Counted from the stretch's first letter, positions 19,549 through 61,861 are shown. The stretch is DNA of 64,000 nt from Clostridia bacterium (GCA_017450965.1 JAFSSQ010000089.1:40103-104102), one strand, 5' to 3'. Notes: generated by a model from the letters alone, not told the origin. Numbers and translations: made by a program.

Positions 19549-19658
19549 AACAGAGTAGGAAGATACGTGCTGACCGGAAGGTCTGAGTGCCGCGGGGACG
19601 GGGAGTTGTCCCGCGGACGAACGCGCAAGCGGCAGTGTGTCTTCCGCATCCCGCTGTT
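19549..19658 (+). promoter_or_regulatory. THF (tetrahydrofolate) riboswitch (Rfam RF01831-like)
   Basis: AACAGAGUAGGAAGAUACGUGC...CCGCGGGGAC-loop-GUCCCGCGGACGAACGCGC...GUGUCUUCCGCAUCCCGCUGUU. The conserved AGAGUAG, GACGAA and GCAUCC(C)GCU blocks and the P1/P2/P3 pairings match the E. siraeum THF aptamer as I remember it. It sits directly upstream of folT. Confidence 0.8.
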
Positions 19659-38200: not shown

Positions 38201-38786
38201 AGCGGGTCAGACGGGAGCACCCCTCCGGCAGGGTGCGCAGCGCGGTGTAAAGAGAGCGCATCGCGGGCAGGAACCGTCCTTCTCCGCGGAAATCGGCAAA
38301 GACGCCGACCAGCGCGATAAAATCGGCGTCGTTTTTCTCAAAACGGAGCGCCTCCTCGGAGAGCAGCGTTTCGTCGAGGAGGGGGTCCGTTTCCGCGCTG
38401 TCGGTCAGGCGCAGGGAGGCGGGCAGTCCGATCCGGTCCTTCTCCGAGCGCAAGAGGTCCTGATAAAAGCTGTCGATGGTGGAGATGGAGGCGGAGGGGA
38501 GCAGGAGAAGCTGCCGCGCGAGATGCTCGTTATCCGGGTCCGCCTCCAGCCGTTTTTCCAGCTCGGCGCGCAGGCGGCTCTTTAACTGCGCCGCCGCCGC
38601 GCGGGTAAAGGTCACGGCCAGCACGCGGGAGACGGTGCCGGGATGCTCGCCGTCCGTGAGATAGCGGAGGATGTTTTCCGTCAGAACGGCGGTCTTGCCG
38701 GAGCCGGCCGCGGCGCAGACCACGGTATCGCCCGAGGCGCCGATCGCCCGCTTCTGCGCGGGGGTCCAGATCCTTTCCTCAGTCAT
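35247..38786 (-). CDS. addA: ATP-dependent helicase/nuclease AddA
   Basis: UvrD-type motifs (AAAGSGKT, VDEYQDVN) and a C-terminal RecB-type nuclease region (GVIDGFF...DYKTD). 1179 aa. Confidence 0.92.
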   Translation of the reverse strand: MTEERIWTPAQKRAIGASGDTVVCAAAGSGKTAVLTENILRYLTDGEHPGTVSRVLAVTFTRAAAAQLKSRLRAELEKRLEADPDNEHLARQLLLLPSASISTIDSFYQDLLRSEKDRIGLPASLRLTDSAETDPLLDETLLSEEALRFEKNDADFIALVGVFADFRGEGRFLPAMRSLYTALRTLPEGCSRLTRFAEEAEAADGELFQTEAGRVLSDALASDCRLWRARFERALETMEKDHPYRPAAEAEAAFLTTFESALSESYATAAAALRSRAAVPLGSKRKGFDPELRALFKTFIDGYRDAIKKIGLRYFAQTGEEARETIRRGTALLRALADFLSAVEARMEKAKREKGICDFSDVSHYVLRILYREDGTLSDTARSIAACYDRIYIDEYQDVNPMQKKIFDALSRQNRFIVGDVKQSIYAFRGSDPSILDSLRREAADPGRGISSVFMAENFRSSETILDFANAAVAPLFAGGSFLYTKEDELVFGGAAGVPERGSAAPVTVLLRPDADPPKNEKQRRQEEARAVCDEIERLVREEKKADGSPFTCGDVAVLFRRDIQAAALTRELDARALPYTTQKPKDLFESPHVSLAVSLLEAVDNPLRDIPLASVLLSPLFSFSADEFFRLSQTKRPTLWEKLCARSGEESPLGEKAKRAADTVNALRERARRTPTSDLVRSLFFDSGTRAALAAASDAPPAAVSADLGALYRLACSYPADAGKGLGGFTEYLEREKASGLSRALSLPDENSVRLMTIHGSKGLEFPAVFLIGCGKDPDPKESSVFSYSLSAGAATAVPDVRGFLKIENPLRQALSFAQKRQSSEEEKRLLYVALTRARERLCLSAPTTEKIREKAKTERFFAPIPCPGLFESRILYAVTAALACPDLARILVGSGEEAEETLRPAAEAPAPVRIPDAGLEEKLINRLAFSYPDAFLTRIPAKLSVSELSPSVLDEASPLLPDPEGSDPVLRPDQTALAFEDAPAFLLGEKKVGAAEAGTATHQFLQFCRFERAENTGAAEEGKRLFADGFLTERQLGALRVGELDAFFASPFYARLKAGRDLRREFRFNCFLPARMLTTDPALKTSLGGRELAVQGVIDGFFLEGEDVILFDYKTDRLPAGISEEEALSLFSERYAWQLSCYAAALRRIYGKPVADALIYSTALGRAFSLRERLTEA

Positions 38787-41700
38787 GGCTTTCCTCCTCT
38801 CTGTCCGTTTTTTCTTCGGTTTTGCTCTGCTCCCGCTCTGTGAGCGGGAGGCGGCAGACCGGGCCGTAGGGGCAGAAATCGCACTCCGGGCCCTCCGGTC
38901 CGTCGGAGGCCGCGCGTACGTCGCCGGTCAGCAGATTTTCCGCCATATCGGTGATCTTTCCCCATACCGCGTGCCGCAGCTCATCCAGCTCGGGGGCGGA
39001 GAGGGTCAACCGTTTCCGGTTCTTCGGATCCGACCGTTTTCCTTTTCGTTCTTCTTCGGAAAAGAGGGAGAAAAAGGCGGGATCCAGCGCCTGCTGCACC
39101 GTTTCTTCCGCGAGGACGACGCCGTAGAGCGCCACCTCCTCCCGCTCGATCGTCTCGTACTCGTCGTCGCTCGGCGCGCACGCCGCCTTCTTTTCCGGCG
39201 GTTTAGCGATGCAGTAGAGCATCCCGGCGGGCAGGACTTTCCCGCCCTCCGATTTCCCGGCGCGGCAAAACAGGTCGGCGTTCTTTTCGTCGCAGAGCGC
39301 AAAGAGATAGAGGGGAAGCTGGAGGGAGCGCCCCCGGTCGAGGGCGGAAAGGGTAAAGGTCTTCTGCCCGGTCTTGTAGTCGATCACCCGGACGTAGACG
39401 TTGCCCGCGCCGTCGGCAAGGACGTCCGCGCGGTCGACCGTTCCGGAGAGGATCGCCCGCCTGCCCCCGGAGAGGGGGAGAACGGCGGGGGAGGGACTCT
39501 CTCCGTCCCCGCCGAAGCGGATCTCCGTCCCGAAGGTGGTAAAAGCCGACGCGGAAAGCTCCCGCGCAAGCTGCCGCGCGACCGGCGCCACCCCCTCGGT
39601 GAGACGGGTAAACTTCATTTTCAGCAGCGGATCGTCCCGCCGCTCGGGCGGGCAGAGCCGCTCAAACTGCTCCTGCCCGAGCCGGCGCACCTCGTCGGAG
39701 ATCTCCGCCTCGCGGACTTTTCCCTCGGAGAGCGACGGGACCAGCTTTTCAAGCACGGCGTGGACGTAGGTCCCCGCGTGGTTGGCGCCGAGGTCCGGCC
39801 GGGCGTCTTCCTTGACCTTGGAGAGATAGCGCAAGAGATAAGAAAAATGGCAGTTTGCGTAGCTTTCCAGCTGCGACTGGGAGAGCGTGAGATCGCGCGC
39901 AAAGCACGCCTCCCGCGTAGAAGGAGCGAGCACGGCGTCCGGCGTTTTCTCCGGCTCGGGCACCGGGGCGCCCGTTTTTTTCAGAGCGGCGCGCACGGCG
40001 GCCGCCTCCGGCGCGCCGTCCCCGGCCAGGAGAAGATAGTTTTCCGCGGAGCGCCGGTCGGAGAGGAAGGCGGCGGAGGCGGGGTCGTAGACGAGATACC
40101 GCACCGCCGGGAAGAGACGTTTCGTCCGGAGGAAGGAGGCGGCTTCCCGCTCGGCGCTTCCGTCCCTGGAAACGGTGAGATGGCAGACCATCGTCACGCT
40201 CTCCGAGGCGAGGGAGAGCGCCCGGGAGAAAAAGTAGAACTCCCGCGCGGTCAGGATCGCCGCGTCCCGCGTCAGCTCGATGCCGGCGTCGGCGAGCAGG
40301 CGTTTTTCCCGCTCGGAGAAAAAACCTTTGACCGAGACGGCGGCGGGGAACTCTCCCTCCCGCACGCCGAGCAGGTAAACGTGCCGGACCCCGGACGCGC
40401 GGAGGGTATCGGCGGAGCCGACGGTCACGGCGTCGGAGGAGGTCGGGATGGCGGAAAGGTCGGAGTCGGAGAGCAGCAGCCGCATCAGATCGGAAAAACC
40501 GCGCGCGTCGACCGTTTCCTCTCCCGCCGCCCGTACCGCGGTATCAAGGGCGGAGAGCAGCGCGTTCCACACGCCCGCTTCCTCGTTTGCCGCCCGCGTT
40601 TCGCCGGCGGCGCGCAGACGGGCGGCCTCAGCCTCCATTTTTTCCCGGACCCCGGCGGAGGAAAGCAGGGCAAACGCCGCTTCCGCCGCCTCTTTTACCG
40701 TCAGGTTTTCCCGGCGGAGGGCGGCGTCGAAGGGCGCGAGGAGGGAAAAGAGACAGTCGCGCACCCCGTTGATCCGGGCGAGCGTTTCGGCGGCGTAGGG
40801 ATCGCGTCCGTCTCCCTCGAAGCCGTTGACGCTCATCGTAAAGGGAACGCCGGACAAGAGATCGCGCCGCGTGAGGGACCAGGTCTTCGCGTAGCGGAGA
40901 TAGAGATCGCAGTCGTCGTCGGAGAGCGGGAGGCACCCGGATTTGAGAAGGGCCTTCACGTCCTCAGGACGGAAACCCCGCGCCGCGCAGGCGCAGGCGG
41001 AGAGGAAAAAGCGGACGGCGGGGCGGTCATCGAGCTTGCTGCCGTGAGCGAAAAAGGCGGGGATCCCGTGCTCCCGCAGCGCCGGCTCCAGGATCGATTC
41101 CCAGGCGTCAAGCGAGCGGACCACCACCGCAAAATCGGCGTAGCGGCACCCATCCTCGCGGATGCGCCGCGCGAGATCCGCGGCGAGGAACTCCGCCTCC
41201 GCCAGCTCGTCTCCGGCGCGCACGAGGCGCAGCGCCTCCCCCGGATCGTCCGGGGAGGCCGCCTCCCGCCCCGCGTTCCAGAGCGAGGAGGAGAGCCGCC
41301 GCAGGACGGGATTATCCGTCCGGCGGTTTTCCCCGAGCGTTTCGACGAGGACGGGAACGGAGAGCCGCTCGGCGATCGCCTCCAGCCGCGCCGCCGTGTC
41401 GCGGATCTCGGCAAGCCAGATCCCGCCGCCCCGCGGAGAGCCGCCGAGGGTAACGGTCACCGAGTCGGCCTGGGCGAGAAGCCGTTCGATGATCGCGTAT
41501 TCCTGCCCGGTAAAGCTGGTAAAGCCGTCGAGATAGATCTCGCAGCCGCAAAAAAAATCGTGGGTTTTCAGAACGGAGATCAGGATATCCCCGTCGTGCC
41601 CGGGGTCCCCGCCGGCCTCCTCCATCAGCGCGGTATAGGCCGCGAGGATCAGCGCGTATTCCTCCAAAAGGGAGGAGAGCCGCCCGTCGCCGGAGAGGGA

Positions 41701-42117
41701 GCGCGCGGCGGCGGAGAGCTTGTCCGGGGAGACGGCGGAGTCGATGAACTCCCCCACCACCCCAAGCCGTTCCTTGACGCGCTCGGGACTGGTCTTGTCG
41801 GGGAGGGAAAGGTTTTGCAATACTCTCCACATCACCGCCCGTTTCAGGTTCTTTCCGGCGTGCGTGCGGGCAACGCCCCCCACCGAGCGGAACACCGCGT
41901 TTGCAAGGCGGGAAAAATTATCCACTTCCACGAAAAGCGGCGCGTGCGGAGGCAGGGAGGAGAGGATCCGCCCCTCGGCGGAGACGGTCTCCTGCTCGGG
42001 ACAGATAAAGTAGATACGTTTTTCCTTGCCGGGCGCGGCGGAAAGCGCCGCCCGCGCGCGGGCGATGCAGGCCTCCGTTTTGCCGCTGCCGGGCAGACCG
42101 CAGAGCAAAGTCAGCAT
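38779..42117 (-). CDS. addB: ATP-dependent helicase/nuclease AddB
   Basis: MLTLLCGLPGSGKTE P-loop, a C-terminal nuclease (VIDYKTG) and Fe-S cysteines (CDFCPYGPVC). It overlaps the addA start by 8 nt. Confidence 0.9.
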   Translation of the reverse strand: MLTLLCGLPGSGKTEACIARARAALSAAPGKEKRIYFICPEQETVSAEGRILSSLPPHAPLFVEVDNFSRLANAVFRSVGGVARTHAGKNLKRAVMWRVLQNLSLPDKTSPERVKERLGVVGEFIDSAVSPDKLSAAARSLSGDGRLSSLLEEYALILAAYTALMEEAGGDPGHDGDILISVLKTHDFFCGCEIYLDGFTSFTGQEYAIIERLLAQADSVTVTLGGSPRGGGIWLAEIRDTAARLEAIAERLSVPVLVETLGENRRTDNPVLRRLSSSLWNAGREAASPDDPGEALRLVRAGDELAEAEFLAADLARRIREDGCRYADFAVVVRSLDAWESILEPALREHGIPAFFAHGSKLDDRPAVRFFLSACACAARGFRPEDVKALLKSGCLPLSDDDCDLYLRYAKTWSLTRRDLLSGVPFTMSVNGFEGDGRDPYAAETLARINGVRDCLFSLLAPFDAALRRENLTVKEAAEAAFALLSSAGVREKMEAEAARLRAAGETRAANEEAGVWNALLSALDTAVRAAGEETVDARGFSDLMRLLLSDSDLSAIPTSSDAVTVGSADTLRASGVRHVYLLGVREGEFPAAVSVKGFFSEREKRLLADAGIELTRDAAILTAREFYFFSRALSLASESVTMVCHLTVSRDGSAEREAASFLRTKRLFPAVRYLVYDPASAAFLSDRRSAENYLLLAGDGAPEAAAVRAALKKTGAPVPEPEKTPDAVLAPSTREACFARDLTLSQSQLESYANCHFSYLLRYLSKVKEDARPDLGANHAGTYVHAVLEKLVPSLSEGKVREAEISDEVRRLGQEQFERLCPPERRDDPLLKMKFTRLTEGVAPVARQLARELSASAFTTFGTEIRFGGDGESPSPAVLPLSGGRRAILSGTVDRADVLADGAGNVYVRVIDYKTGQKTFTLSALDRGRSLQLPLYLFALCDEKNADLFCRAGKSEGGKVLPAGMLYCIAKPPEKKAACAPSDDEYETIEREEVALYGVVLAEETVQQALDPAFFSLFSEEERKGKRSDPKNRKRLTLSAPELDELRHAVWGKITDMAENLLTGDVRAASDGPEGPECDFCPYGPVCRLPLTEREQSKTEEKTDREEESHD

Positions 42118-43001
42118 GGCGTTTCCTCCTTTGTACACTCGTCCGGACCGTACAGGATCTCCAGATTGCGCAGTACCGTTTCCCGTTTCCGCCAGGCAAA
42201 GGCGCGGCGGGCGAACGCCTCGTCGTCCAGCGCCGCGAGGGTGTTATAGTCGAGCCGCTCGATCCGGTCCTGCCGGAAATACCCGATCGGCGTCTCCAGC
42301 GTGCCGCGCGCCGCGGCGTTTTTCGTCACGGGGCAGACCTTCTGGCAGACGTCGCACCCCCACACGCTGCCGAGGCGGCGGAGGCGTTCTTTTTCCTTTT
42401 CGGTGAGCGCGCCCTTTTTCTGCGTCAGGGCGGAGAGACAGACGAAGGTTTCCCCGTCAAAGTACCCGGGGCAGGCGCGCCGGCAGGCGCCGCAGTGCAG
42501 GCAGAGCGCCGGCGCCGTCCGCCCGGGCAGCTCCCATTCTTCCGGGGAGAGGTCGCTTGCCGCCTCGCCGAGGAAGACGAAGGAGGAGTAGTCCTCTGTC
42601 AGAAAGAGATGGTTGTCCCCCGGGGAACCGAGTCCCGCCCGCTCGGCGGCGAGCGTCTCGCGGAAGGGGGACTTATCGGCGAAAAAGGCGAAGTTCGCCC
42701 GCGGCCAGATCTCCCGCAAAACCGGCTCCAGACGGGAAAAGAGTCCGGCATAGTAGGCGTGGTAGTCCGGCACCGCCGCGTAGGCGGAAAAGTTCTCCGG
42801 GTACCCGGCAAAGTAGGGAACGCAGATCACGAGAAGCGAGCGCACGCGAAAGCCCCCCTCGGGCGCCGCGTCGTCGCCGTCAAGGCAGAGACGGGCGCGG
42901 CGCAGCCGCTCCGGCGAGGAGAGGAGGTCGGGCGTCATCGGGGCGACCCCCCACAGGGAGAGACGCTCTTTTTCGAAAAAAGCGGAAAGTTGTTGTTTCA
43001 T
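42111..43001 (-). CDS. epoxyqueuosine reductase QueG-like 4Fe-4S protein (DUF1730 type)
   Basis: CLHCGACRRACP and CDVCQKVCP ferredoxin motifs after a DUF1730-like N-half. It is shorter than B. subtilis QueG. The stop overlaps the addB start. Confidence 0.65.
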   Translation of the reverse strand: MKQQLSAFFEKERLSLWGVAPMTPDLLSSPERLRRARLCLDGDDAAPEGGFRVRSLLVICVPYFAGYPENFSAYAAVPDYHAYYAGLFSRLEPVLREIWPRANFAFFADKSPFRETLAAERAGLGSPGDNHLFLTEDYSSFVFLGEAASDLSPEEWELPGRTAPALCLHCGACRRACPGYFDGETFVCLSALTQKKGALTEKEKERLRRLGSVWGCDVCQKVCPVTKNAAARGTLETPIGYFRQDRIERLDYNTLAALDDEAFARRAFAWRKRETVLRNLEILYGPDECTKEETPC

Positions 43002-43143: not shown

Positions 43144-45147
43144 ATGGAAGAAGCGAAAAAAACGAAGGTCGTATATAACGATACGAGTATCGAAAAACTG
43201 GAAGGACCCGACCGGGTCCGGAAACGCCCGGCCGTTATTTTCGGTACGGAGGGGCTGGAGGGCTGCGAGCACGCGGTCTTCGAGATCCTCTCCAACTCCG
43301 TCGACGAGGCGCGCGCCGGCTACGGTAAGAAAATCACCGTCACGGTGTTCGCCGACAAGTCGATCGAGGTGGACGATAACGGGCGCGGCGTGCCGCTCGG
43401 TTATAATGAAAAACAGCAGGACTGGAACTGGCATCTCGTTTTCTGCGAGCTCTACGCCGGCGGCAAGTATAACAACAAGGACAAGGACAGCCCCTACAAG
43501 TACCCCCTCGGCACCAACGGTCTCGGCGCGTGCGCGACCCAGTACGCGTCGGAATATATGCGCGTCCGCTCCTACGACGGCGCCTTTGTGCGGGAGATGA
43601 ACTTCAAAAAGGGCTTTCCCGTCGGGGAGCTTACCGAGCGGGAGCTGGAAAAAAAGGAACGCCGCACCGGCACCGTCATCCGCTGGAAGCCGGATATCGA
43701 GGTCTTCACCGACATCAACATCCCGGTTGAATACTTTGCGGATATGCTCCACCGCCAGTCGGTCGTAAACGCCGGGCTGCGCTTTATTCTGCGGGTGGAG
43801 AAGGAAAAGGGCGGCTTTGAGGAGACGGAATACGTCTATGAGAACGGCATCACCGATTACGTCGGGGAGCTGGCGGGCGACCGCGCGCTGACCGCCACCG
43901 CCTTTTTCCGGACCGAGATGCGCGGCCGCGACCGCGAGGATATGGAGGACTACGACGTTCTCGCGGAGATCGCCTTCTGTTTGACGAACGGCGTCAGCGC
44001 GATCGAGTATTACCACAACTCAAGCCCCCTCGATCACGGCGGAGCGACCGAACGCGCCGCCCGCGCCGCCTTTACCTCCGCGCTCGACAAGGCGCTCAAA
44101 AACGCCGGCAAATACAACAAAAACGAGCAGAAGGTCACCTATTCGGATATCGAGGAGTCGCTCGTTCTCGTGATCAACAGCTTCTCCTCCGACGCGTCGT
44201 ACGAAAACCAGACCAAAAAGGCCGTGAACAACCCCTTCATCCAGAAGGCGGTCACCGAATATCTCGCCCGGCAGCTGGAGATCTACTTCCTTGAAAACCG
44301 CACCGACGCCGAGCTTTTCATGAAGAACGTGCTCCTCAACAAACGCAGCCGCGAGGAGGCGGAAAAGAGCCGCGTCGACTTCAAAAAGACGCTCGGCAAA
44401 CGCAGCGACGACGCCGCAAACCGGGTGGAAAAGTTCGTTTCCTGCCGCTCGAAGGACAAAAACGTCCGGGAGCTTTATATCGTGGAGGGCGACTCCGCCA
44501 TGAGCTCCTGTAAGCTCGGGCGGGACGCCGAGTTCCAGGCGATCATCCCCGTGCGCGGCAAAACGCTCAACTGCCTCAAGGTCGGCTACGACCGCATCCT
44601 CAAAAGCGAGATCATCGTCGATCTTTTGCGCGTGATCGGCTGCGGCGCCGAGATCAAAGGCAAAACGAAGGAGACGAAGGACGGCTTCCGCCCGGAGGAT
44701 CTCGCGTGGTCGAAGATCATCATCTGCACCGACGCGGACGAGGACGGCTTCCAGATCCGCACGCTGCTGCTCACGATGTTCTACCGGCTGCTGCCCACGC
44801 TGATCAAGGAGGGCAAGCTCTTTATCGCGGAGTCCCCGCTCTTTGAGATCACCGCGAAGGATAAGACCTTCTTCGCCTATACCGAGGAGGAGAAGGACAA
44901 GATCCTCGCCGGGCTCGGCAAGCAGAAGGCGACGGTCCAGCGCTCCAAAGGTCTCGGCGAAAACGAGCCGGAGATGATGTGGGAGACGACGATGAACCCC
45001 GCCACGCGCCGCCTGGTGGCGATCACCCCGGCGGACGCGAAGGAGACGGACGAGATCTTCGAGCTTCTGCTCGGCGACAACCTCGCCGGCCGCAAAAAGT
45101 ATATCGCCGACTACGGCAAGTTCTATATCAAGGACGCGGATATCTGA
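43144..45147 (+). CDS. type IIA DNA topoisomerase, ATPase (B) subunit, GyrB/ParE paralog
   Basis: GHKL ATPase (EILSNSVDEA, DDNGRGVP, GTNGLGA), a transducer domain and a Toprim domain (ELYIVEGDSA, IICTDADEDG). 667 aa. No A subunit follows. Confidence 0.85.
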   Translation: MEEAKKTKVVYNDTSIEKLEGPDRVRKRPAVIFGTEGLEGCEHAVFEILSNSVDEARAGYGKKITVTVFADKSIEVDDNGRGVPLGYNEKQQDWNWHLVFCELYAGGKYNNKDKDSPYKYPLGTNGLGACATQYASEYMRVRSYDGAFVREMNFKKGFPVGELTERELEKKERRTGTVIRWKPDIEVFTDINIPVEYFADMLHRQSVVNAGLRFILRVEKEKGGFEETEYVYENGITDYVGELAGDRALTATAFFRTEMRGRDREDMEDYDVLAEIAFCLTNGVSAIEYYHNSSPLDHGGATERAARAAFTSALDKALKNAGKYNKNEQKVTYSDIEESLVLVINSFSSDASYENQTKKAVNNPFIQKAVTEYLARQLEIYFLENRTDAELFMKNVLLNKRSREEAEKSRVDFKKTLGKRSDDAANRVEKFVSCRSKDKNVRELYIVEGDSAMSSCKLGRDAEFQAIIPVRGKTLNCLKVGYDRILKSEIIVDLLRVIGCGAEIKGKTKETKDGFRPEDLAWSKIIICTDADEDGFQIRTLLLTMFYRLLPTLIKEGKLFIAESPLFEITAKDKTFFAYTEEEKDKILAGLGKQKATVQRSKGLGENEPEMMWETTMNPATRRLVAITPADAKETDEIFELLLGDNLAGRKKYIADYGKFYIKDADI

Positions 45148-45261: not shown

Positions 45262-46104
45262 ATGGAGCCGATCAAAAAACCACCTGCCCTCGCCCGCTTT
45301 GAGAGGGCCCTTTATCTGCGGGAAAAAAGCAAAAACACCCGGGAAAAGTATGTGCGGGACGCCGGAGCGTTCCTTGCCTTTCTGCGCGGCGGAGAGATCA
45401 CGAAAGACAAGGTCATCGCCTTCAAAAACGCGCTGACGGGACGGGGATACGCCGTCCGCAGCGTCAACTCGATGCTGGCTGGCGTTAACGCTTTTCTTTC
45501 TTTTATCGGGCTGGAGGATTGTCGGGTACGGACCGTTCGCGCGCAGACGCCGCTCTACTGCCGGGAGGAGAAGGAGCTGACGCGCGAGGAATACCGGCGG
45601 CTCGTTCAAACGGCGCGGAAAAGAGATAATCTCCGTCTTGCCCTGCTTCTTGAAACACTCTGCGGCACCGGGATCCGGGTCAGCGAGCTTCCTTTTATCA
45701 CCGCGGAGGCAGCGCGGGCGGGCGAGGCGGCCGTTCTATGCAAAGGGAAAAGCCGGAACGTGTTTCTTGTGCGCGCCCTGCGCGGAAAACTGCTTGCCTA
45801 CGCGCGGGAGCAGGGGATCCGGTCGGGACCTCTCTTTCTCACTCGCAGCGGCAGACCGATGGACCGGATCGCCGTCTGGCGGGAGATGAAAGCCCTCTGC
45901 CGCGAGGCTGACGTTTCCCCCTCCAAGGTATTCCCCCACAATCTTCGCCACCTGTTCGCCCGCGTTTTTTATGCGCTGGAAAAGGATCTTGCCAAGCTCG
46001 CCGACGTTCTCGGGCACAGCAGCGTCAACACGACGAGGCTCTATATCATCTCGACCGGCGAGGAGCATCGCCGCCGGATGGAACGGATGCGGCTGATCCT
46101 GTAA
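45262..46104 (+). CDS. site-specific tyrosine recombinase (XerC/D-like, 280 aa)
   Basis: N-terminal SAM-like core-binding domain. Catalytic signature: TGIRVSEL (Arg), HNLRHLFA (His-x-x-Arg), LGHSSVNTTRLY (His, Tyr). ATG 45262 follows AAAGGAG. Confidence 0.85.
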   Translation: MEPIKKPPALARFERALYLREKSKNTREKYVRDAGAFLAFLRGGEITKDKVIAFKNALTGRGYAVRSVNSMLAGVNAFLSFIGLEDCRVRTVRAQTPLYCREEKELTREEYRRLVQTARKRDNLRLALLLETLCGTGIRVSELPFITAEAARAGEAAVLCKGKSRNVFLVRALRGKLLAYAREQGIRSGPLFLTRSGRPMDRIAVWREMKALCREADVSPSKVFPHNLRHLFARVFYALEKDLAKLADVLGHSSVNTTRLYIISTGEEHRRRMERMRLIL

Positions 46105-46126
46105 AAAAAAGACCGCCGAGGCGGTC
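46103..46126 (-). terminator. leftward-facing intrinsic terminator between the recombinase stop and the left inverted repeat
   Basis: GACCGCC..GGCGGTC stem. On the minus strand it is followed by T8. On the plus strand there is no U-tract. Confidence 0.5.
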
Positions 46127-46128
46127 TG

Positions 46129-46153
46129 AACAACAGAATCGGTATTACGTTGC
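46129..46153. repeat. left inverted repeat (IRL) of the putative invertible element
   Basis: AACAACAGAATCGGTATTACGTTGC matches the reverse complement of 46372..46396 at 23/25 positions. It has internal dyad arms around a CGGT centre. Confidence 0.9.
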
Positions 46154-46307
46154 TTTTCCAAATCTTCTTCGCAAAACGATCCTCGCAGAAAACGGAAAAA
46201 GACAGCAAAAAACAAAGCCTTGGGCAGATCGTTGAAACAAGACCGGCAAAAGGCTCTTCTTTTTTGCACTTACGCGCAAGTTTTCTCGCTATACTCTGGG
46301 TTCCGAC

Positions 46308-46336
46308 TTGACTTTTTATCGTTTTTATGCTATAAA
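46308..46336 (+). promoter_or_regulatory. near-consensus sigma-A promoter inside the IR-bounded segment, currently pointing at the GT-C-like gene
   Basis: TTGACT, 17-nt spacer, TGc-TATAAA. Confidence 0.65.
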
Positions 46337-46371
46337 AAGGACATCGTAGGAGAAGGTTATTCTTCTCTCAC

Positions 46372-46396
46372 GCAACATAATACCGATTATGTTGTT
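46372..46396. repeat. right inverted repeat (IRR) of the putative invertible element
   Basis: GCAACATAATACCGATTATGTTGTT has perfect 9-bp dyad arms CAACATAAT/ATTATGTTG around an ACCG centre, which is inverted relative to IRL. Confidence 0.9.
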
Positions 46397-46427
46397 TACA
46401 AAATCATTGATAGGAGTAAGCGGCGTT

Positions 46428-48320
46428 GTGAAAAATGAGATGACAGCAAAGATTAAATCGATTTTATTCTTTGCTTTTTATTTTCTGTCAGCCTGTTCGT
46501 GTTTTACTTTAATATGCCTGTTTAAGCCATTACGGGTAAAAGTGTTTTTCTTTATAACAGCAATCGTGATTTGTGCTTATTGCTTCATAAAAAAGAAAGA
46601 ATTACTAATCAAAAAAAGAACAAAAAATATAACTGCGATGGCTTTGTGTATAGAAAGCGTTTGTTTTTTTGATTTTTATTATAATGCGATACATGTTCGC
46701 GAGCGAATCGTTTCAATCATTTCAAAAACGATCCCGATATCGTGGCTTGAAAAACTCCTAAACGAAAACATTGTATATGTTTTTATAGGAATTGCATTAT
46801 GTTCAATGGGTTTTTTGTTTGTAAAAACAGTTTCGCCGTACTTCTTAAGAGTGATCGGGAGTGTTCTGCGTATCCTGAAAAAACACAAAACCTCTTTTTT
46901 GATTCTTTTATCCGTATGCATCCTTTCTTTTGTCGCGGTCATACGAGCAAATTATTATTATACTGATGATTTAGGAAGAACTGTTTACGGGTACGGAATA
47001 ACAGGAACTTTTAGCAGGTATTTAGCAAATATACTATCGGAAGTTTTTCACGGAAACTCCTGGCTTGCGGATGTTTCACCGTTACCGCAGATCATTGCTT
47101 TAGTTATCATATCCATAGCTGCAATACTGCTTTTGCATATTATCAGTGAGACAATTCATAAACAACCAACAAAATGGAGTTTTATCGCTTTAATACCGGT
47201 TTGTTTATCCCCCTATTTTTTGAGTTGTCTGTCTTATAAATACGATGCGCCGTATATGGCGTTATCCGTTCTTGTATCGATATTACCTTTGGTTTTCATG
47301 GAATCCGGCCTTGCTTTTTATTCCGTTACCGTGTTTATCAGCATGCTGGCGATGTGTGCGACGTATCAGGTTTCATCAGGCGTTTTCCCTATGCTTGTGG
47401 CGATGATCATGCTGTTAATGTGGATACAAAAAGCGGAACATAAAAAGATTTTCCGTTTGTTATTGAGTTCAGCAATATCTTATTCATCGGCATTGATTGT
47501 GTTCAGACTGGTGATCATGACTCCGATCAGTGAAGATAATTATGTGGACGCGGGAGTATCGATCAGCAATTTGTTTCCCAATATAAAGATATATTTCAAT
47601 CTTTTGAATAATGACTTGCCGACCATTTGGAAAGCGCTGTTTTCTGTGTGTTTTGTATTCTTAGTTATCATAATAGTTGCTATAACACATCAGAAAAAAG
47701 TATTGAGCATTTTAACAGCGATTTTTGTCAGTATCTGTTCGTTCCTTTTATCGTTTGGCGTATATATCGTATTTAACAAACCGTTGTTCTCGACAAGAGC
47801 TTTTTATGGCGTCGGTGTTTTCCTTTCCATTATCTGTTGTGTTATCTTCCTTGAAAACAGATTCAACATAGCCAAACTTCCCGTTGTTTGCTTAAGTTGG
47901 TTTTTTGTTGTATATTGTTTTATCTACGGCAACGCTTTAAATATCCAAAAAGAGTATATAGACTTTAGGACAGAACAAATCATAAACGATTGCAATAATC
48001 TGGATTTACTAAAAAAAGACAACACAACAAAGCTGCAGACAATAGGTACCGCGGGCTATCAGCGGGCGGTAAAAAACATGATAGAAGAGTATCCGCTGTT
48101 AGAAAGACAAATACCTGTATTGCTGTCAGCGTCAGAATGGTCTTGGGGAACATTTCAATTCAGGGAGTATTACGGATTGAATATAGAGATTGCAGATATC
48201 GGTGAACTGCAATTAAAGAAAGCCGCTTTGCTGAAAGAGACATATTATTATTCCATATACCAAGCGGACGATGTTATCGTAATAGAATTAAAGGACGTTG
48301 AAAAAACAGTTTCCAAATAG
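46428..48320 (+). CDS. AT-rich polytopic membrane protein, GtrII / GT-C-like glycosyltransferase candidate
   Basis: The track ORF is 46389..48320. GTG 46428 is preferred (AGGAG 10 nt upstream, and ATG 46389 lies inside IRR); ATG 46440 is also possible. Many hydrophobic helices, a first-loop motif YYYTDDLGRTVYGYG, and a soluble C-terminal domain of roughly 130 aa. Confidence 0.65.
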   Translation: MKNEMTAKIKSILFFAFYFLSACSCFTLICLFKPLRVKVFFFITAIVICAYCFIKKKELLIKKRTKNITAMALCIESVCFFDFYYNAIHVRERIVSIISKTIPISWLEKLLNENIVYVFIGIALCSMGFLFVKTVSPYFLRVIGSVLRILKKHKTSFLILLSVCILSFVAVIRANYYYTDDLGRTVYGYGITGTFSRYLANILSEVFHGNSWLADVSPLPQIIALVIISIAAILLLHIISETIHKQPTKWSFIALIPVCLSPYFLSCLSYKYDAPYMALSVLVSILPLVFMESGLAFYSVTVFISMLAMCATYQVSSGVFPMLVAMIMLLMWIQKAEHKKIFRLLLSSAISYSSALIVFRLVIMTPISEDNYVDAGVSISNLFPNIKIYFNLLNNDLPTIWKALFSVCFVFLVIIIVAITHQKKVLSILTAIFVSICSFLLSFGVYIVFNKPLFSTRAFYGVGVFLSIICCVIFLENRFNIAKLPVVCLSWFFVVYCFIYGNALNIQKEYIDFRTEQIINDCNNLDLLKKDNTTKLQTIGTAGYQRAVKNMIEEYPLLERQIPVLLSASEWSWGTFQFREYYGLNIEIADIGELQLKKAALLKETYYYSIYQADDVIVIELKDVEKTVSK

Positions 48321-48390: not shown

Positions 48391-48426
48391 GAATTCCACC
48401 CTGCTGCTTAGCGGGTGGAATTTTTC
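48391..48426 (+). terminator. intrinsic terminator after the GT-C-like gene
   Basis: GAATTCCACCC / GGGTGGAATT stem, 10-nt loop, T-run. Confidence 0.7.
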
Positions 48427-48780: not shown

Positions 48781-50163
48781 ATGAAAAAAACGGTTTCTCT
48801 TTTGATCAGCGTTTTTCTCCTTGTTACCTCCTGTACCGTCTTCGCCGTTCCCGCGGCGGCGGACGAAGCGGTCGTCTACGTGAAAGACGGCGGGACCGGC
48901 GACGGCTCGTCCGTGTCTTCTCCGCTCGGCAGCTTTGACGCCGCGCTCAAAGCGCTCGCCTCCACCGGCGGCACCGTGAAGGTGGTCGACGCCGTTACTC
49001 CGGTCGGCAACACCGAGGCGAAAGCCGAGATCACGGGCTTTTACTACGCGGAGCCCGCGCACGGGCAGCGGATCACCGTTACCTCCGCCGACCCCGCAAA
49101 CAAAGCGCAGATCATTTTTTCCACCGAGTGCCAGTGGTACGCGCTCTCCGGTCCGACCGCCTTTGAAAACCTGAAGATGGTCAACGATACCGAGTCGTTT
49201 GCGCGGATCCTGGCGCGCGGCAACCATCTTATGATGGGCGAAGGGCTGGAGATGTATTTCGGCGAGACCCTGCAAACCACCTACGACGTTTTCGACAGCA
49301 CGATGAAGGGCTTTACGGTGATCGGGATCACCAACGTCGGCGCGGAATACGAAGGAATGGCCGAAGCGGACACGAAGATCACGATCAAGTCCGGCGTCTA
49401 CTTCCTCGTTCAGGCGTACAGCCGCAAGCTTACTGACTCACTTGTCCATACGGGGAACTGCTATATGGAGTTCCTCGGCAGTTTTGCCGTCCGGCAGATG
49501 GGCTTCGCTTCTCAGGGCTCGGCCTGCACCGTTCAGGGCGAAGCGTATATCTACTGGGCGTCCAAGGTGCACAGCTGGCGGATCTTCCCCGGTTACGACG
49601 TAACGACGACCGAGCCCTTTACCGCCAATCTCTTCCTCGACGCAAACGCCGACTTCCTGAACGAAGGGGATATGCCGCAGACGTTCGTCGGACCGGCGAA
49701 GGTCAAAACGGTCAATATCTGGTATAATCCCGCAAGCAGCACGGCGAAGGAGCTCGCCGAGTGGACGGAGACCGGCTATAGGATCACGCAGGCGGACGGC
49801 GCCGTGAACCTCGACACGCTCGACCGGTACGCCGGCCCCGCTTACCGCATCAGCACGGAGAGCGTTGTGGAGCCGGTGACGCCGGAGACGCAGCCCCCCG
49901 AGACGAAGGCTCCGGAAACGAAAGCGCCCGAAACGAAAGCGCCCGATACGAAAGCCCCTGAAACCGAAGCGCCCGGCACGGGGGCGCCGGTCAGTACCGG
50001 GACGCCCGGTACGGGAGCGGCCGGCACCGGGACGACCGGCACCGCTCCGACGGAAGCGCCCGGCGAACAGAACGGCGTGCCCGTCTACGTCTGGATCATC
50101 ATCGGCGCCGTGGTCGTTTGCGGCGTCGTGATCGGCGTGATCCTTGCCAAAAAGAAGAAATAA
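48781..50163 (+). CDS. secreted beta-helix-like surface protein, paralog 1 (PETKA-repeat stalk, C-terminal TM anchor)
   Basis: Signal peptide MKKTVSLLISVFLLVTSCTVFAVPAAA. VYVKDGGTGDGSS.SSPLGS.DAAL resembles right-handed beta-helix N-termini. Pro/Glu/Thr/Lys/Ala repeats. Tail VYVWIIIGAVVVCGVVIGVILAKKKK. Confidence 0.75.
   Translation: MKKTVSLLISVFLLVTSCTVFAVPAAADEAVVYVKDGGTGDGSSVSSPLGSFDAALKALASTGGTVKVVDAVTPVGNTEAKAEITGFYYAEPAHGQRITVTSADPANKAQIIFSTECQWYALSGPTAFENLKMVNDTESFARILARGNHLMMGEGLEMYFGETLQTTYDVFDSTMKGFTVIGITNVGAEYEGMAEADTKITIKSGVYFLVQAYSRKLTDSLVHTGNCYMEFLGSFAVRQMGFASQGSACTVQGEAYIYWASKVHSWRIFPGYDVTTTEPFTANLFLDANADFLNEGDMPQTFVGPAKVKTVNIWYNPASSTAKELAEWTETGYRITQADGAVNLDTLDRYAGPAYRISTESVVEPVTPETQPPETKAPETKAPETKAPDTKAPETEAPGTGAPVSTGTPGTGAAGTGTTGTAPTEAPGEQNGVPVYVWIIIGAVVVCGVVIGVILAKKKK
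49882..49986 (+). repeat. in-frame tandem repeat, about 7 x 15 nt (P-E-T-K-A units)
   Basis: ccggaaacgaaagcg / cccgaaacgaaagcg / cccgatacgaaagcc ... read directly from the sequence. Confidence 0.85.
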
Positions 50164-50222
50164 ACCGGCTGCGCAAAGGATAGAACGTTTATTCAATCAA
50201 GGATTCTGAAAGGAGAATCAAA

Positions 50223-51512
50223 ATGAAACGCTTGCTCTCTCTTTTGATCTGCGTCTTTGTTCTGCTTTCCTCCTGCCTCCTGTTTTCCTTCGCCGCGGCG
50301 GCGGAGGAAGCGGTCGTCTACGTGAAGGACGGCGGGACCGGCGACGGCTCCTCCGCCTCCTCGCCCCTCGGCACGCTCGACGCCGCGCTCCAGGCGATCG
50401 CCTCGACCGGCGGCACCGTAAAGGTGGTCGAAGCCGTCACGCTCGCCGGCAACACCGCGGCGACCGCCGAGGTGGATACCTACTACGCGGAACCGGCTCA
50501 CACCCGGCGGATCACGATCACCTCCGCCGATCCCGCGAACAAAGCGAAGCTCATTTTCCCCGCCGCCTGCCAGTGGTACGCGCTCTCCGGCCCGACCGTT
50601 TTTGAAGAGATCGGTCTGGTCGACAACGCGGAAACCTTCGTCCGGATTCTCGGGCGCGGCCACCACGTGACGATGGGCGAAGGGCTGGAGATGTATTTCG
50701 GCGAGACTCTCCAGACCCCTTCCGACGTAAGCGCGGGCTCGATGAAGGGCTTTACGGTGATCGGGATCACCAACGTCGGCGCGGAATACGACGGATATCT
50801 GGCGTCCGACACGAAGATCACGGTCAAATCCGGCGTCTATTACCTGATCCAGGCGTATACCCGCAACTTTACCGCCGCCGGCGATCTGACCGGGAACGCC
50901 TACGTGGAGATCCTCGGCGACATCGCCGTCCGGCAGATCGGCCTTGCTTCTCTGAAAAAAGGACACACCTGCTCCGGGCAGGCGTACCTCTACTGGGCGG
51001 CGCAAGTCATCGCTTATTGGGTTTTCCCCGGCTATGATTCGGCGGCTGAGCCGTTCACCGCAAACTTCTTCCTTGCCGACGGCGCGGATTTCCGCAAAGA
51101 CACGGATCCCACGGCAACGCAGAAACTCGTCGGCGCCGGTAAAGTCAAAACGCTCAATATCTGGCACGATACCAGCGCCTCCGCGACCGCGCTCGCCGAT
51201 CATTTCAAGAGCACCTATAGCATCACCCAGGCGGACGGCAGCGTAAATCAGGCCGCCCTCGCCGACTATAACGGACCGGCGTACCGGATCCCGGCGGATC
51301 CGGCTCCGCTGGAAAATACCGGCACCGGGACGGACACCGGAACGGGTACAAGTACAGGAACGGGCACGGATACGGGTACCGGTACAGAGACAGGGACAGG
51401 GACAGGTACCGGGACCGCCCCGAACACCGGAGACGGTTTTCTCTGCGCGGCTGCCGCGGCCGTTCTTGCGCTTGCCGGCGCCCTCGTCTTCCGCAAAAAA
51501 GCGAGAGGATAA
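50223..51512 (+). CDS. secreted beta-helix-like surface protein, paralog 2 (Gly-Thr repeat stalk, sortase-type sorting signal)
   Basis: The N-terminal ~330 aa are highly similar to paralog 1. (GT)n stalk. C-terminus APNTGDG + FLCAAAAAVLALAGALVF + RKKARG. Confidence 0.75.
   Translation: MKRLLSLLICVFVLLSSCLLFSFAAAAEEAVVYVKDGGTGDGSSASSPLGTLDAALQAIASTGGTVKVVEAVTLAGNTAATAEVDTYYAEPAHTRRITITSADPANKAKLIFPAACQWYALSGPTVFEEIGLVDNAETFVRILGRGHHVTMGEGLEMYFGETLQTPSDVSAGSMKGFTVIGITNVGAEYDGYLASDTKITVKSGVYYLIQAYTRNFTAAGDLTGNAYVEILGDIAVRQIGLASLKKGHTCSGQAYLYWAAQVIAYWVFPGYDSAAEPFTANFFLADGADFRKDTDPTATQKLVGAGKVKTLNIWHDTSASATALADHFKSTYSITQADGSVNQAALADYNGPAYRIPADPAPLENTGTGTDTGTGTSTGTGTDTGTGTETGTGTGTGTAPNTGDGFLCAAAAAVLALAGALVFRKKARG
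51318..51416 (+). repeat. in-frame 6-nt microsatellite-like repeat encoding a 33-aa T-G-(T/D/S/E) stalk
   Basis: accggcaccgggacggacaccggaacgggtaca...gggacaggtaccgggacc encodes TGTGTDTGTGTSTGTGTDTGTGTETGTGTGTGT. Confidence 0.85.
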
Positions 51513-51828: not shown

Positions 51829-51904
51829 TGGTGCTCCTGCGGAGAATCGAACTCCGGACACCTTGATTAAAAGTCAAGTGCTCTACCAGCTGAGCTACAG
51901 GGGC
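51829..51904 (-). tRNA. tRNA-Lys (anticodon UUU), CCA encoded
   Basis: Hand-folded cloverleaf: GCCCCTG-TA-GCTC-AGCTGGTA-GAGC-A-CTTGA-CTTTTAA-TCAAG-GTGTC-CGGAG-TTCGATT-CTCCG-CAGGAGC-A-CCA. 76 nt with one C3-A70 mismatch. Confidence 0.9.
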
Positions 51905-52060: not shown

Positions 52061-52522
52061 ATGGATCCGCAACACAATAGGAAAAAGACCGGAAGAGAAC
52101 TCCTGCGCACGATCAAGTACGCGCTTGTCGCCGCTTCCGCGGGGGTCATTCAGATCGGGACCTTTACCCTCTTAAACGAACTTCTCCATTGGGACTACTG
52201 GGTCAGTTATCTGATCGCGCTGGTGCTGAGCGTTCTCTGGAACTTCACCCTCAACCGCCGCTATACCTTCCAGAGCGCCTCCGACGTGAAGAAGGCGATG
52301 CTGCTCGTCTTCCTTTACTATCTCGTTTTCACGCCGCTGAGCACGTGGCTGGAGGATTTCTTAGCCGATACCTGCGGCTGGAACGAGTACCTTGTCACGG
52401 GGAGCAATATGCTGATCAATTTCGTCACGGAGTTTCTCTATCCGCGGTTTTTCGTTTTCCGCGATACGCTGGATACCACCGACCTCGCCGAAAAGAAGCG
52501 CCGCGCCGACCGGGCCTCCTGA
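52061..52522 (+). CDS. gtrA: GtrA family membrane protein (polyprenyl-phosphate-sugar flippase-like)
   Basis: 4 TM. KYALVAASAGVIQIGTFTLL and WNFTLNRRYTF signatures. ATG 52061 follows AAAGGAG. Confidence 0.85.
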   Translation: MDPQHNRKKTGRELLRTIKYALVAASAGVIQIGTFTLLNELLHWDYWVSYLIALVLSVLWNFTLNRRYTFQSASDVKKAMLLVFLYYLVFTPLSTWLEDFLADTCGWNEYLVTGSNMLINFVTEFLYPRFFVFRDTLDTTDLAEKKRRADRAS

Positions 52523-54906: not shown

Positions 54907-54974
54907 AAAACAAATATGGGGTGTTATATTTATTCACTTTTGATACAGCGAAAGCCGATACCAAGGAGAGAAAT

Positions 54975-57900
54975 ATGAAAAAACAATTCAAACCGTTCAG
55001 TTTTCTGACGGCGCTGATCCTGTTGATCGTTCTCGTATTGGTTCCGACGGGAACGTTTGCGGGGGCAAGCTTTGTAAAGGGCGTTTTTGCAAGCTCCGCG
55101 GGCGGAAATGCGCTGTGGGAAGGGGAAGGCACCGAGGCGGAGCCGTACCTCATCCAATCGGCGGAGGACTGGGACGCGCTCAGCGAGTATACCAACGGCG
55201 GCGGAACGGACTATGCCGGCAAGTATTTTTTGCTGACGGAGGATATTTCCGTTTCGACCATGGTCGGCTTCCGGGACCAGAGCTCGGCGGATATCCCGTT
55301 CACCGGGACCTTTGACGGCGGCGGCCATACCCTGAACGTTTCCATCCGGTATAGCGGCGCGATGGCGGCTCCGTTCGGCTCCGTTTGTAACGCCGTGATC
55401 AAAAACCTCAACGTAACGGGTACGGTAAACGGCGGCATACATTCCTCCGGCCTTGTCGGCGGCGGCAACAAAGGCGCCGTCCCGGGCAGCACGCTCGAGA
55501 TCTGCAACGTCCGGTCGAGCGTGGCGGTCAACGGCTACAACAACTCGGCCGTTTCGCACCTCGGCGGTATCGTGGGCCATTCGCTCAGCGCCCGGATCAC
55601 GATGGACAACGTCGTCTTCGCCGGCAGTCTCAACGGCAGCATGGCGCAGGGCGGTTTTGTCGGCTGGGGCGGCGGCGCCGGCGATCACCTTTCGATCTGC
55701 GTGTTCAGCAACTGCCTGTTCGCCGGAACGGTCAAATCCGGCAATACCTTCCACCCGGTCGGTTACGCCTACGGCAACAACGGCAGGGCAACGCTGACCA
55801 ATTTCTACACCACCAAAGACAAAAACAACACCTCCAACGCGTTTGATTACCAGGGCACCTCTTACACCGTGCTGAGCGGGCTTGCCGCGAAGGTGACGGA
55901 CGGCGGCGCGATCCGGTACTATGATAACTTCGCTTCCGCGGCGAGCGCTCAAAACTGGAAGCAGGGAAGCACCCTGACGCTGCTTGGCGACGTTTCGATC
56001 TCAAGCACCCTGAACGTACCCGCGGGCGAGTATACGCTTGACTTGAACGGTTACGGCATACGCAGGACCGGCAGCGGCTGTGTGATCAGAGTGAACGAAC
56101 AGTCGACGCTGAATCTCAAAGACAGCAACCCTTCGGTCGAACACAGGTATTCGGTCTCCAATCCCGCCGCGAACGGCGCGGGCGTTGCGACTGTCAACGA
56201 TGCGCTGACAAGCGGCTATCAGACCTTTACCGGCGGCTATATTACCGGCGGCTATATTACCGGCGGGTATAATTACGGCGCGGGCATCAACGTGGAAGGA
56301 AACGGCGCCGCTCTCAATATGTACGGCGGAACGATCATCGGCAACCGTCTTACGGCGGGATCTACCGGCGGCGGCGGCGTTTGTCTGCAGGATTGGACCG
56401 GAACCGGCGGCTTCCATATGTACGGCGGTTCGATCATCGGCAACACCTCCAATTACGGCGGCGGCGTTTACGTCAGATGCGGTACGATGGTCATGGTTGA
56501 CGGCGAGATCAGCCGTAACGTTGCGAACAACAATATCGGCGGCGGACTGCTCGCATTCGGCGCATCTTCCGCCTTTATCATGGAAGGCGGCGTGATCAAC
56601 GGAAACTATGCGCAGCACGGCGGCGCGATCGAAGCGTCCGGCGGGGCTGCCGTCTCGATCTCGGGCGGCGTTATAACCAACAATACCGCGTCCGGTAAGG
56701 GCGGCGCGTTGACAAACCAGAGAACGGACGGAGATACCAGCCCCGCCGTATTCAACATCTCCGGCGCGCCCGTCTTTTCGGGGAACACCGCCGGCGGACA
56801 GTCAAGTGACGCTTATTTGTGCAATACCGCGGTACTGAACGTGACCGGCGAGCTGACGAACACAACGCCTTTCCTTGTGAAGAGATCAAGCGGTACCGGC
56901 GCGTTCACCTCCGGCTGGAACGACAAGATGGGAGACGCCGATCCGTCCGACTACTTCAAAAGCGAAAACGGCAGTTATCAGGTTTTCCTGAATCCCACCG
57001 GCGAAGCGGAGATCGGCACGCCTCCCGTGGCATGTATCATCAGCGGAGAAACCGCGGCGTATTACACCTCGATTTCCGCCGCGGCGAGCAGTACGAACTG
57101 GACGGCGGGCAGCACGCTGAAACTGCTCGACGACGTTACCGCAACCGCCGTGATCACCGCGCCCTCCGGCGCGCATACCCTCGACCTCAACGGGCATACG
57201 ATCACGAGGACCGGCGCTACCGGCGCAGATAATTCCGGTCTTGTAATCACGGTGAACGACGGGGCAAACCTGACGGTCACCGGCCCCGGCAAGATCACCG
57301 GCGGCAGCGGTTTCCACGGCGGCGGTATTCACGTTGAAGGGACCGGCTCCCTTGTCCTTGATCACTGCGAGATCAGCGGAAACACCGGACATTACGGCGG
57401 CGGTCTGTATCTGAAAGGCGGCACCATAACCCTGAAAAACGGGACGGTCGTCAAGGATAATTTGGGCACGGACGGTTATGGCGGCCCCGGTATTTATGCG
57501 GAGAGCGGCGGAACGCTGATCCTGGAAGACTGTACGTTTACCGGGAACAGAATGAACAGCGGTATGCAATGCGCAGTATTCCTCTGCGGAAACGCCAAAG
57601 TTCAGGTGAGCGGAGCTCCCGTGATCTATGACAATACATACAACGGCGAGCAAAAGAATCTGCTTTTTTTCCAGGCGAACGACCAGCAGAGCAGGGTCTT
57701 AGTCACGGGTACGCTGACCGACGGCGCGAAAATCGGCGTCAGACAGACGAACGACAATTTCGGTGCTTTCTCGATCGGCTGGAAGGATAAAATGGGCGAC
57801 GCCGATCCTGCCGAGTATTTTATCAGCGACAACAGCGGTTACATCGTCTGTGTAACTGCAGAAGGAGAAGCATTGCTCCGCTATCCCGACGTACCCAGCG

Positions 57901-61784: not shown

Positions 61785-61861
61785 AAGACGAAACGATCTT
61801 CAAAGAAGGGAGATATAATATAACCCCCGCTTTCGGACAGGTTTTATTATACGCGAGAACA

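Follow-up and report, generated by a model that had tools for sequence, protein, structure and literature searches.

Invertible promoters served by tyrosine recombinases are classically known from the fim locus of Escherichia coli, from the Tsr recombinases of Bacteroides and from RecV of Clostridioides difficile. FimB and FimE, which act at fim, are recombinases of about 200 amino acids from a subfamily different from that of the protein described below, and the inverted repeats (IRs) of fimS measure 9 bp. Phase variation of glycosyltransferases is known from Salmonella, in which the phage-type gtrABC clusters for O-antigen glucosylation vary via Dam and OxyR. Here, we describe a locus in a 64,000-nt stretch of DNA from a Clostridia bacterium (GCA_017450965.1, JAFSSQ010000089.1:40103-104102; hereafter the window, with positions counted from its first nucleotide), in which two inverted copies of a 25-nt site flank a promoter between the gene of a tyrosine recombinase and that of a membrane glycosyltransferase. 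An initial annotation, made from the DNA alone, had proposed that this is a recombinase-controlled ON/OFF switch for a cell-surface glycan-modifying enzyme. From the anatomy of the locus and from its relatives, we put the probability that the window holds an active phase-variation switch at roughly 0.8.

The described systems nearest in taxonomy are also clostridial. In C. difficile, RecV serves the cwpV, flagellar and cmrRST switches (PMC5903667, PMC2784873), and a further inversion of ~230 bp, Cdi7, is independent of RecV and lies beside the recombinase CDR20291_3416 (PMC5903667). Among the reports returned by a literature search, and as far as the retrieved part of their text extends, one alone (PMC11892184) joins invertons, Clostridia and tyrosine recombinases. 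The retrieved sections of this paper, a PhaseFinderDC catalogue of the hCom2 community from 2025, describe an inverton group 139 that comprises 33 invertons, 32 of them from Clostridia, in 17 strains (PMC11892184). Its IR motif is called "previously unpublished" there, and nearly all of its members adjoin a tyrosine recombinase that is assigned to "invertase group 35" (PMC11892184). According to the same sections, the IRs are 13-25 nt long, the interiors measure 206-228 bp (in Clostridium sp. D5 and Intestinimonas butyriciproducens), and read-level orientation ratios moved over culture passages (PMC11892184).

Anatomy of the locus

The gene upstream of the repeats (45262-46104, plus strand) encodes an Xer-like tyrosine recombinase of 280 amino acids that consists of an N-terminal SAM-like domain (Pfam PF02899) and a catalytic domain (PF00589, Phage_integrase, 8e-22). 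Its open reading frame (ORF) is full length, the catalytic residues R139, K163, H226, R229, H252 and Y261 all fall on invariant columns of the family, and the ribosome-binding site AAGGAG lies 7 nt ahead of the ATG. The nearest solved structures are XerA (4a8e, 7e-22) and XerD (1a0p). This is the only tyrosine recombinase gene of its kind in the window, and its product is presumably the invertase.

Directly behind this gene, a repeat finder placed two 25-nt arms at 46129-46153 (AACAACAGAATCGGTATTACGTTGC) and 46372-46396 (GCAACATAATACCGATTATGTTGTT), which are complementary at 23/25 positions (92%) and enclose 218 nt. When each arm was searched for on both strands of the window with up to 3 mismatches allowed, these two places were the only matches, and 100 dinucleotide-preserving shuffles of the window yielded a mean of 0.00 matches. 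The left recombination site (IRL, 46129-46153), which lies 24 nt past the recombinase stop, contains the 18-bp core ACAGAAT-CGGT-ATTACGT at 46133-46150, with its crossover centre CGGT at 46140-46143. The right site (IRR, 46372-46396) contains the core ACATAAT-ACCG-ATTATGT at 46375-46392, with its centre ACCG at 46382-46385; taken as six bases, the centre is TCGGTA in both sites. The first core lies 28 nt past the recombinase stop and the two cores are 224 bp apart. While the IRR core matches the family consensus ACATAAT-N4-ATTATGT perfectly, the IRL core deviates from it at two positions, G 46136 and C 46148, which are both in the arms and leave the centre untouched. The initial annotation had assigned 9-bp dyad arms to each site; this holds for the right site, where the dyad is perfect (CAACATAAT/ATTATGTTG), and only in part for the left site, where 7/9 positions pair (CAACAGAAT/ATTACGTTG).

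The 218-bp segment between the repeats (46154-46371) has a GC content of 41%, compared to 58-60% directly upstream, and the step falls at IRL, with 58% in the 24 nt that precede it and 40% from IRL onward. Within the segment, a plus-strand promoter (46308-46336) is aimed at the downstream cargo gene. It is composed of TTGACT (46308-46313), a 17-nt spacer and TATAAA (46331-46336) preceded by the TGc of an extended -10 element, with transcription expected to start near 46343, and the present orientation of the segment would accordingly be ON. In a position-weight scan, this promoter scored 14.7 bits, the top value in the segment, compared to 6.5 bits for the best match on the opposite strand; a generic promoter scan misses it because that scan requires a T at the last -10 position.

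Two hairpins accompany these elements. The first, T1 (46102-46127, minus strand), is a predicted intrinsic terminator in which a hairpin at 46110-46127 is followed by U8 (free energy -13.4 kcal/mol, z -3.4), and its U-run exists on the minus strand only. A strict scan of the related loci described below detected a GC-rich, perfect-stem hairpin past the recombinase stop and ahead of the left site in 31 of them, with an A-run ahead of it in 31/31 and a T-run behind it in 0/31. This strand-specific arrangement of A-run and U-run therefore suggests that T1 terminates transcripts leaving the segment leftward and not the recombinase mRNA. The second, T2 (46205-46267), is a long hairpin of A-tract, stem and T-tract within the segment, upstream of the promoter, which folds with a free energy of -24.3 (z -2.9) on the minus strand and -19.4 (z -1.8) on the plus strand and looks like a bidirectional terminator or insulator. 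When the promoter-upstream part of the segment was folded locus by locus and compared to dinucleotide shuffles, the mean z across the family was -2.3, with negative values in 53/58 loci, and many loci share a recurrent hairpin in the T2 region composed of an A-tract, AAGCCTTTTC...GAAAAGGCTT and a T-tract. RNAalifold returned no consensus for T2 because the register of the MAFFT alignment shifts among loci.

The cargo gene (46428-48320, plus strand) encodes a polytopic, GT-C-like glycosyltransferase of the GtrC/GtrII type, 630 amino acids long, with matches to PF14264 (5e-37) and to PHROG 4829, "GtrC-like O-antigen conversion translocase" (2e-59). Although an ATG at 46389 sits inside the right recombination site, the true start is likely the GTG at 46428, which is preceded by the Shine-Dalgarno sequence AGGAG (46413-46417) and fits both the NCBI-sourced product of 630 amino acids and the alignment with the ATG of homologues. 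With a GC content of 36% and a third-codon-position GC (GC3) of 0.39, compared to ~60% and 0.6-0.9 in its neighbours, the gene is a horizontal acquisition. A terminator-like hairpin with a T-run follows it on the plus strand (48400-48425) and it is probably a single-gene unit; GC is back at 62% from 48781 on. Two other genes of glycan metabolism lie farther along in native-GC DNA, namely a GtrA-like flippase-family gene (52061-52522, plus strand) 3.7 kb past the cargo and, 13.4 kb past it, the one GT2 glycosyltransferase gene detected in the window (61727-62911, plus strand). It is possible that their products are partners of the switched GtrC-like enzyme and provide it with a lipid-linked sugar. 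Apart from the left dyad, what the initial annotation had read in this region was borne out: a tyrosine recombinase gene, an inverted repeat of 23/25 with centres CGGT on the left and ACCG on the right, a promoter inside the segment that points at the downstream gene, an AT-rich GtrII/GT-C-like cargo, and a right site that overlaps the first ATG with a GTG and its AGGAG just beyond.

These elements suggest a mechanism. The recombinase would bind the ACATAAT/ATTATGT arms of the two 18-bp cores and exchange strands across the identical CGGT/ACCG centre and, because the two sites are inverted, the 218-bp segment would invert. In the ON state, which is the one captured in the window, the internal promoter would read across the right site into the GtrC/GtrII-type gene, whose product would presumably attach a sugar to a glycan of the cell envelope. 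In the OFF state, the promoter would instead fire at the recombinase gene and its transcripts would be halted by the minus-strand T1, while T2, upstream of the promoter, would stop read-through from the recombinase gene, and the cargo would be silent.

A switch family in Clostridia and signs of inversion

Databases contain more than 8000 relatives of the recombinase, and the top 120 homologues are 55-66% identical to it and mostly 281 amino acids long. A scan of species-representative genomes returned at least 600 matches, of which the best 80 loci, with recombinases 53-65% identical to that of the window, were examined. These loci come from Oscillospiraceae, Acutalibacteraceae, Lachnospiraceae and other Clostridia; Subdoligranulum variabile also carries a member of the family (L098). 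Of the 80 loci, 77 show a core of the form ACATAA-N6-TTATGT at most ~100 nt away from the recombinase stop, and 64 contain an inverted pair of cores 187-346 bp apart, the first of which usually lies 20-60 nt past the stop (0-90 nt overall).

Across these 64 loci and the window, the core arms are near-invariant and carry the inner-side extension TGTTGYA. The six-base centres fall into 44 variants, all of them asymmetric and none palindromic. Both sites of a locus share the same centre in 65/65 cases, a count for which a match of the 4-nt centre was an inclusion filter that excluded two incomplete contigs and no complete locus; when sites were randomly re-paired, the mean number of centre matches was 2.1. 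Conserved protein-binding arms around a free crossover centre that matches between partners are the layout of a tyrosine-recombinase core site, as which the initial annotation had identified the two repeats. Where one genome harbors paralogous switches (L013 vs L059, L018 vs L056), their centres differ and each has its own site pair. The window shares this anatomy with the family: the recombinase, inverted cores, a matching centre, an extended -10 promoter and a minus-strand T1.

The resemblance of the recombinase to Xer proteins, and a tRNA-Lys (UUU) gene at 51829-51904 (minus strand), 3.5 kb past the cargo gene, could be taken to mean that there is no switch at all. The repeats would then be the remnant of a miniature inverted-repeat transposable element (MITE) or insertion sequence, a chromosomal dif on which Xer acts, or att sites belonging to an integrated element that has the adjacent gene as its integrase gene. 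We consider this extremely improbable. With regard to a MITE or insertion sequence, no further copies were found in the window, a search for stray cores across 631 kb from related loci gave none, and the bases flanking the repeat (GGTCTG and TACAAA) form no target-site duplication. With regard to dif, the NCBIfam scores of the recombinase are far under the cut-offs for XerA (114.9 vs 220), XerD (111.9 vs 329.6), XerC (101.3 vs 335) and XerS (54 vs 267), its sites are an inverted pair beside the gene, and paralogues of gene plus sites occur in one genome. Inverted att sites could not excise, and the 218-bp interior is gene-free; moreover, GC is native in the genes that separate the tRNA from the cargo, which does not suggest an island boundary, although no search for att-like repeats was made. 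A MITE and a dif-resolving Xer were the two alternatives that the initial annotation had itself raised, and neither agrees with these results.

We then consider the orientation of the segments. Nearly every segment contains a promoter of the form TTGaca-17-TGnTATAAT located 36-50 nt from one of its ends (38 nt from the core-site edge in the window). It is aimed at the cargo in the window and in 15 related loci and at the recombinase in 44 others, while in the remaining 5 its direction is ambiguous. Out of 92 pairs of alignable segments, 29 are in opposite orientation to one another, and the orientation given by segment homology agrees with the promoter-based ON/OFF assignment in 86/86 pairs. 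The clearest pair comes from two Acutalibacteraceae genomes (L079 and L081) with left flanks that are 97% identical and right flanks that are collinear: a direct comparison of their 297-nt interiors gives 34% identity, which rises to 96.6% once one of them is reverse-complemented. In another locus, L078, the contig (assembled with MEGAHIT, k=141) closes with 135 nt in which its recombinase 3' end, T1 and left site recur exactly, as the reverse complement. As this reverse complement begins exactly at IRR, both junctions existed in that sample. Contigs also break within 300 nt past the recombinase stop in 11 of the 80 loci, several of them at the left site, compared to 3 that break within 300 nt before the start. 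Together, the anatomy, its conservation across 64 loci and the presence of both orientations among relatives support the proposal of an ON/OFF phase switch, and the window copy presumably flips in its own population.

Variations on this design were also observed. Three core sites with a common centre are present in L054, L069, L071, L072, L079, L081 and L098 (for example, L079:1188-1520), the extra core being located 30-63 nt from one segment end, and the inversion that distinguishes L079 from L081 runs via the outermost pair. Three cores with the same centre would permit two nested inversions and hence more than two states. In Pusillibacter faecalis MM59 (pMM59_01; L097:3800-4119), a recombinase of ~50% identity is followed by a different 26-nt inverted repeat, TCCTATAGACAAAAACAACATTTCGT, whose arms enclose 268 bp, and a gene for an S-layer-homology protein lies downstream. 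The same architecture with another core sequence indicates that the design extends beyond the ACATAAT family.

Several observations weigh against an active switch in the window. The exact recombinase was found on two public contigs that differ by 1 mismatch in 12.8 kb, practically a single sequence, and the segment is ON. Exact-pattern searches of metagenome contigs of the Joint Genome Institute (JGI) gave 0 matches for the predicted inverted left junction and for the observed junction alike, which is uninformative, the organism being absent there. A promoter scan recognised no promoter for the recombinase gene itself. The two arm deviations in IRL could weaken binding by the recombinase, the whole promoter-upstream part of the window's segment has a z of +0.7 on the plus strand and is thus no stabler than shuffles, and decayed switches next to homologues of the transferase (see below) suggest that switches of this family can become locked. 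In a separate look at flipping within one species, by way of the related recombinase P0057 (83 contigs), the segment is OFF in 10/10 places; places with the same neighbours were merged in this count, by which orientation variants would be hidden.

Such points could describe a fossil or locked switch, in which weak left arms or poor expression of the recombinase have ended flipping and left the glycosyltransferase with a constitutive promoter. The two consensus mismatches of IRL, both within its arms, the single orientation observed and the homologues of the same cargo behind decayed switches (L095/L096 and L092-L094) would all fit this account. It is at odds, however, with a recombinase that is full length and retains all catalytic residues, with identical crossover centres, and with the retention of both T1 and T2. 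In addition, the two arm variants of IRL recur in intact-looking switches elsewhere, ACAGAAT in L013 and L064 and ACGTAAT in L045 and L046. We therefore regard a locked switch as quite unlikely and favor one that still inverts.

Cargo genes and surroundings

A co-directional ORF lies directly past IRR in 62 of 65 loci (the 64 loci and the window). The products of these cargo genes are diverse and include SPFH/Band 7 proteins (7 loci), BspA-type leucine-rich-repeat proteins (4), TetR regulators (4) and proteins with collagen repeats (3), along with VWA, fn3, camelysin, GGDEF, histidine kinase and other types at one or two loci each. A GtrII cargo was found in the window alone among the surveyed switch loci. 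The closest homologues of the window's transferase are 63-73% identical to it and come from genomes with 28-37% GC. Two of the homologues are preceded by both sites, the promoter and a recombinase gene that is reduced to its final ~15 codons (L095:955-1245, L096:100-393), and three others by the right site and promoter only (L092-L094; for example, L093:3727-4000 and L092:1545-1790). These decayed switches look as if they were locked ON. The leader between IRR and the start codon is conserved in all GtrII homologues with decayed switches and accompanies the GtrII gene through genomes that range from 28 to 62% GC, and this leader and the sites near the transferase homologues together suggest that the lineage has long travelled behind such a switch.

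A hint as to how different genes come to lie behind one type of recombinase may come from ten contigs of one species, a Ruminococcus-like organism, with an identical recombinase, P0057 (L082-L091). These contigs show 0 mismatches over 3.9 kb through the left site, with a boundary at ~3875-3892, past which identity drops to ~77% in the interior and unrelated cargo follows (a 259-amino-acid protein, a PDDEXK_4 protein, and cohesin/dockerin proteins). The identical recombinase serves the centres TCGGCA, ACGGTA and ACGGCA. Such a pattern could arise if the locus were a platform for cargo capture, in which segment and cargo are swapped together by site-specific recombination at the left site, somewhat in the manner of an integron attI site; this would be compatible with a switch. 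The break in P0057 identity at IRL, the drop in GC at the same site in the window, the movement of the IRR-to-start leader with the GtrII gene across genomes of widely different GC, and the high diversity of cargo behind one recombinase type are all consistent with capture. However, neither the window nor a stretch of 3-4 kb at 90 loci revealed a directly repeated second core that bounds the cargo, and the right-hand boundaries of the P0057 contigs lie inside coding sequence that these contigs share, a pattern expected from ordinary homologous recombination. The interior of the window's segment also shows no detectable homology to that of L095, the closest cargo relative, their similarity being no higher than a shuffled background, and sharp boundaries can equally result from allelic replacement at any hypervariable locus. 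We consider site-specific capture rather unlikely. If it were true, gut Clostridia could place nearly any acquired gene under ready-made phase-variable control, with examples among surface proteins, SPFH proteins, regulators and, in a genome of 62% GC, a low-GC glycosyltransferase; the variable centre would then act as a private address that keeps the paralogous switches of one genome from recombining with each other.

Other features of the window lie outside the switch. Directly upstream of the recombinase gene, 43144-45147 (plus strand) encodes a GyrB/ParE-like B subunit of a type IIA topoisomerase, which scores 448-476 bits compared to NCBIfam gyrB/parE cut-offs of 740-882 and is therefore a divergent paralogue. 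Farther upstream, two ORFs of more than 1100 codons overlap on opposite strands at 38671-42249, where the public gene call on an identical contig is on the minus strand (1050 amino acids, no Pfam match), and a tetrahydrofolate (THF) riboswitch is located at 19549-19658 (plus strand; 73.5 bits, well over the Rfam gathering score). Downstream of the cargo, three large plus-strand ORFs (460, 429 and 1661 amino acids; 48781-51512 and 54921-59906) have no Pfam match, and the first of these contains a 15-nt tandem repeat of 5.3 copies (49897-49975).

Comparison with known systems

The E. coli fim switch resembles the window in that a tyrosine recombinase gene lies directly upstream of, and is read toward, an element of ~300 bp with a promoter that drives a surface structure, and in that the 3' end of the recombinase gene is coupled to the switch. 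The two differ in their sites, which in the window have 18-bp cores built as dyads around a centre that varies, and in their hosts, the window being from Gram-positive-type Clostridia; in addition, the recombinase scores only 20.7 and 16 bits against the NCBIfam models for FimB and FimE (PRK09870 and PRK09871, with cut-offs of 221 and 222). The C. difficile switches share with the window their occurrence in Clostridia, the use of a tyrosine recombinase and segments of 150-230 bp upstream of surface or signalling genes, and Cdi7 in addition adjoins a recombinase. By description, RecV serves several sites in trans, which are unlinked and differ in their IRs without recognisable relation, whereas the recombinase of the window is adjacent to its sites and dedicated to them, and control of cwpV is based on a terminator, whereas that of the window would depend on promoter orientation. 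Xer/dif systems are similar to the window in protein architecture and in a core site whose short central region is flanked by two dyad arms, but consist of a single dif at the terminus in place of two inverted sites beside the gene with centres that vary between loci.

With regard to the cargo, the Salmonella gtrABC clusters likewise place a serotype-converting transferase of the GtrC/GtrII type under ON/OFF control. Their switching relies on methylation, in contrast to the DNA inversion proposed for the window, where the transferase stands alone behind the switch: gtrA and gtrB were not found in one operon with it, and a terminator-like site follows it. Because the host is a metagenome-assembled genome of Clostridia, the acceptor is not an O-antigen.

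The family is widespread in gut Clostridia, across hundreds of species, and phase-variable surface glycosylation alters how phages and the host immune system perceive a gut bacterium. Here, the proposed mechanism is legible straight from the sequence of an uncultured Clostridia genome. The anatomy of the family could be used to annotate switches without reads and to call ON or OFF from an assembly, and the family could also serve as a source of inversion switches, compact and orthogonal to one another, with which to engineer Clostridia.

The closest counterpart is inverton group 139, which agrees with the family of the window in taxon, in the adjacent recombinase and in dimensions (PMC11892184). 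On the basis of these three comparisons with the retrieved sections of that catalogue, the two are probably the same. The account of group 139 in those sections is given without site anatomy, terminators, analysis of cargo or a GtrII example (PMC11892184). Although the step is an incremental one, the family anatomy described here, with its self-matching centre, fixed promoter, paired terminators and turnover of cargo from the left site, goes beyond what was found in the literature searched.

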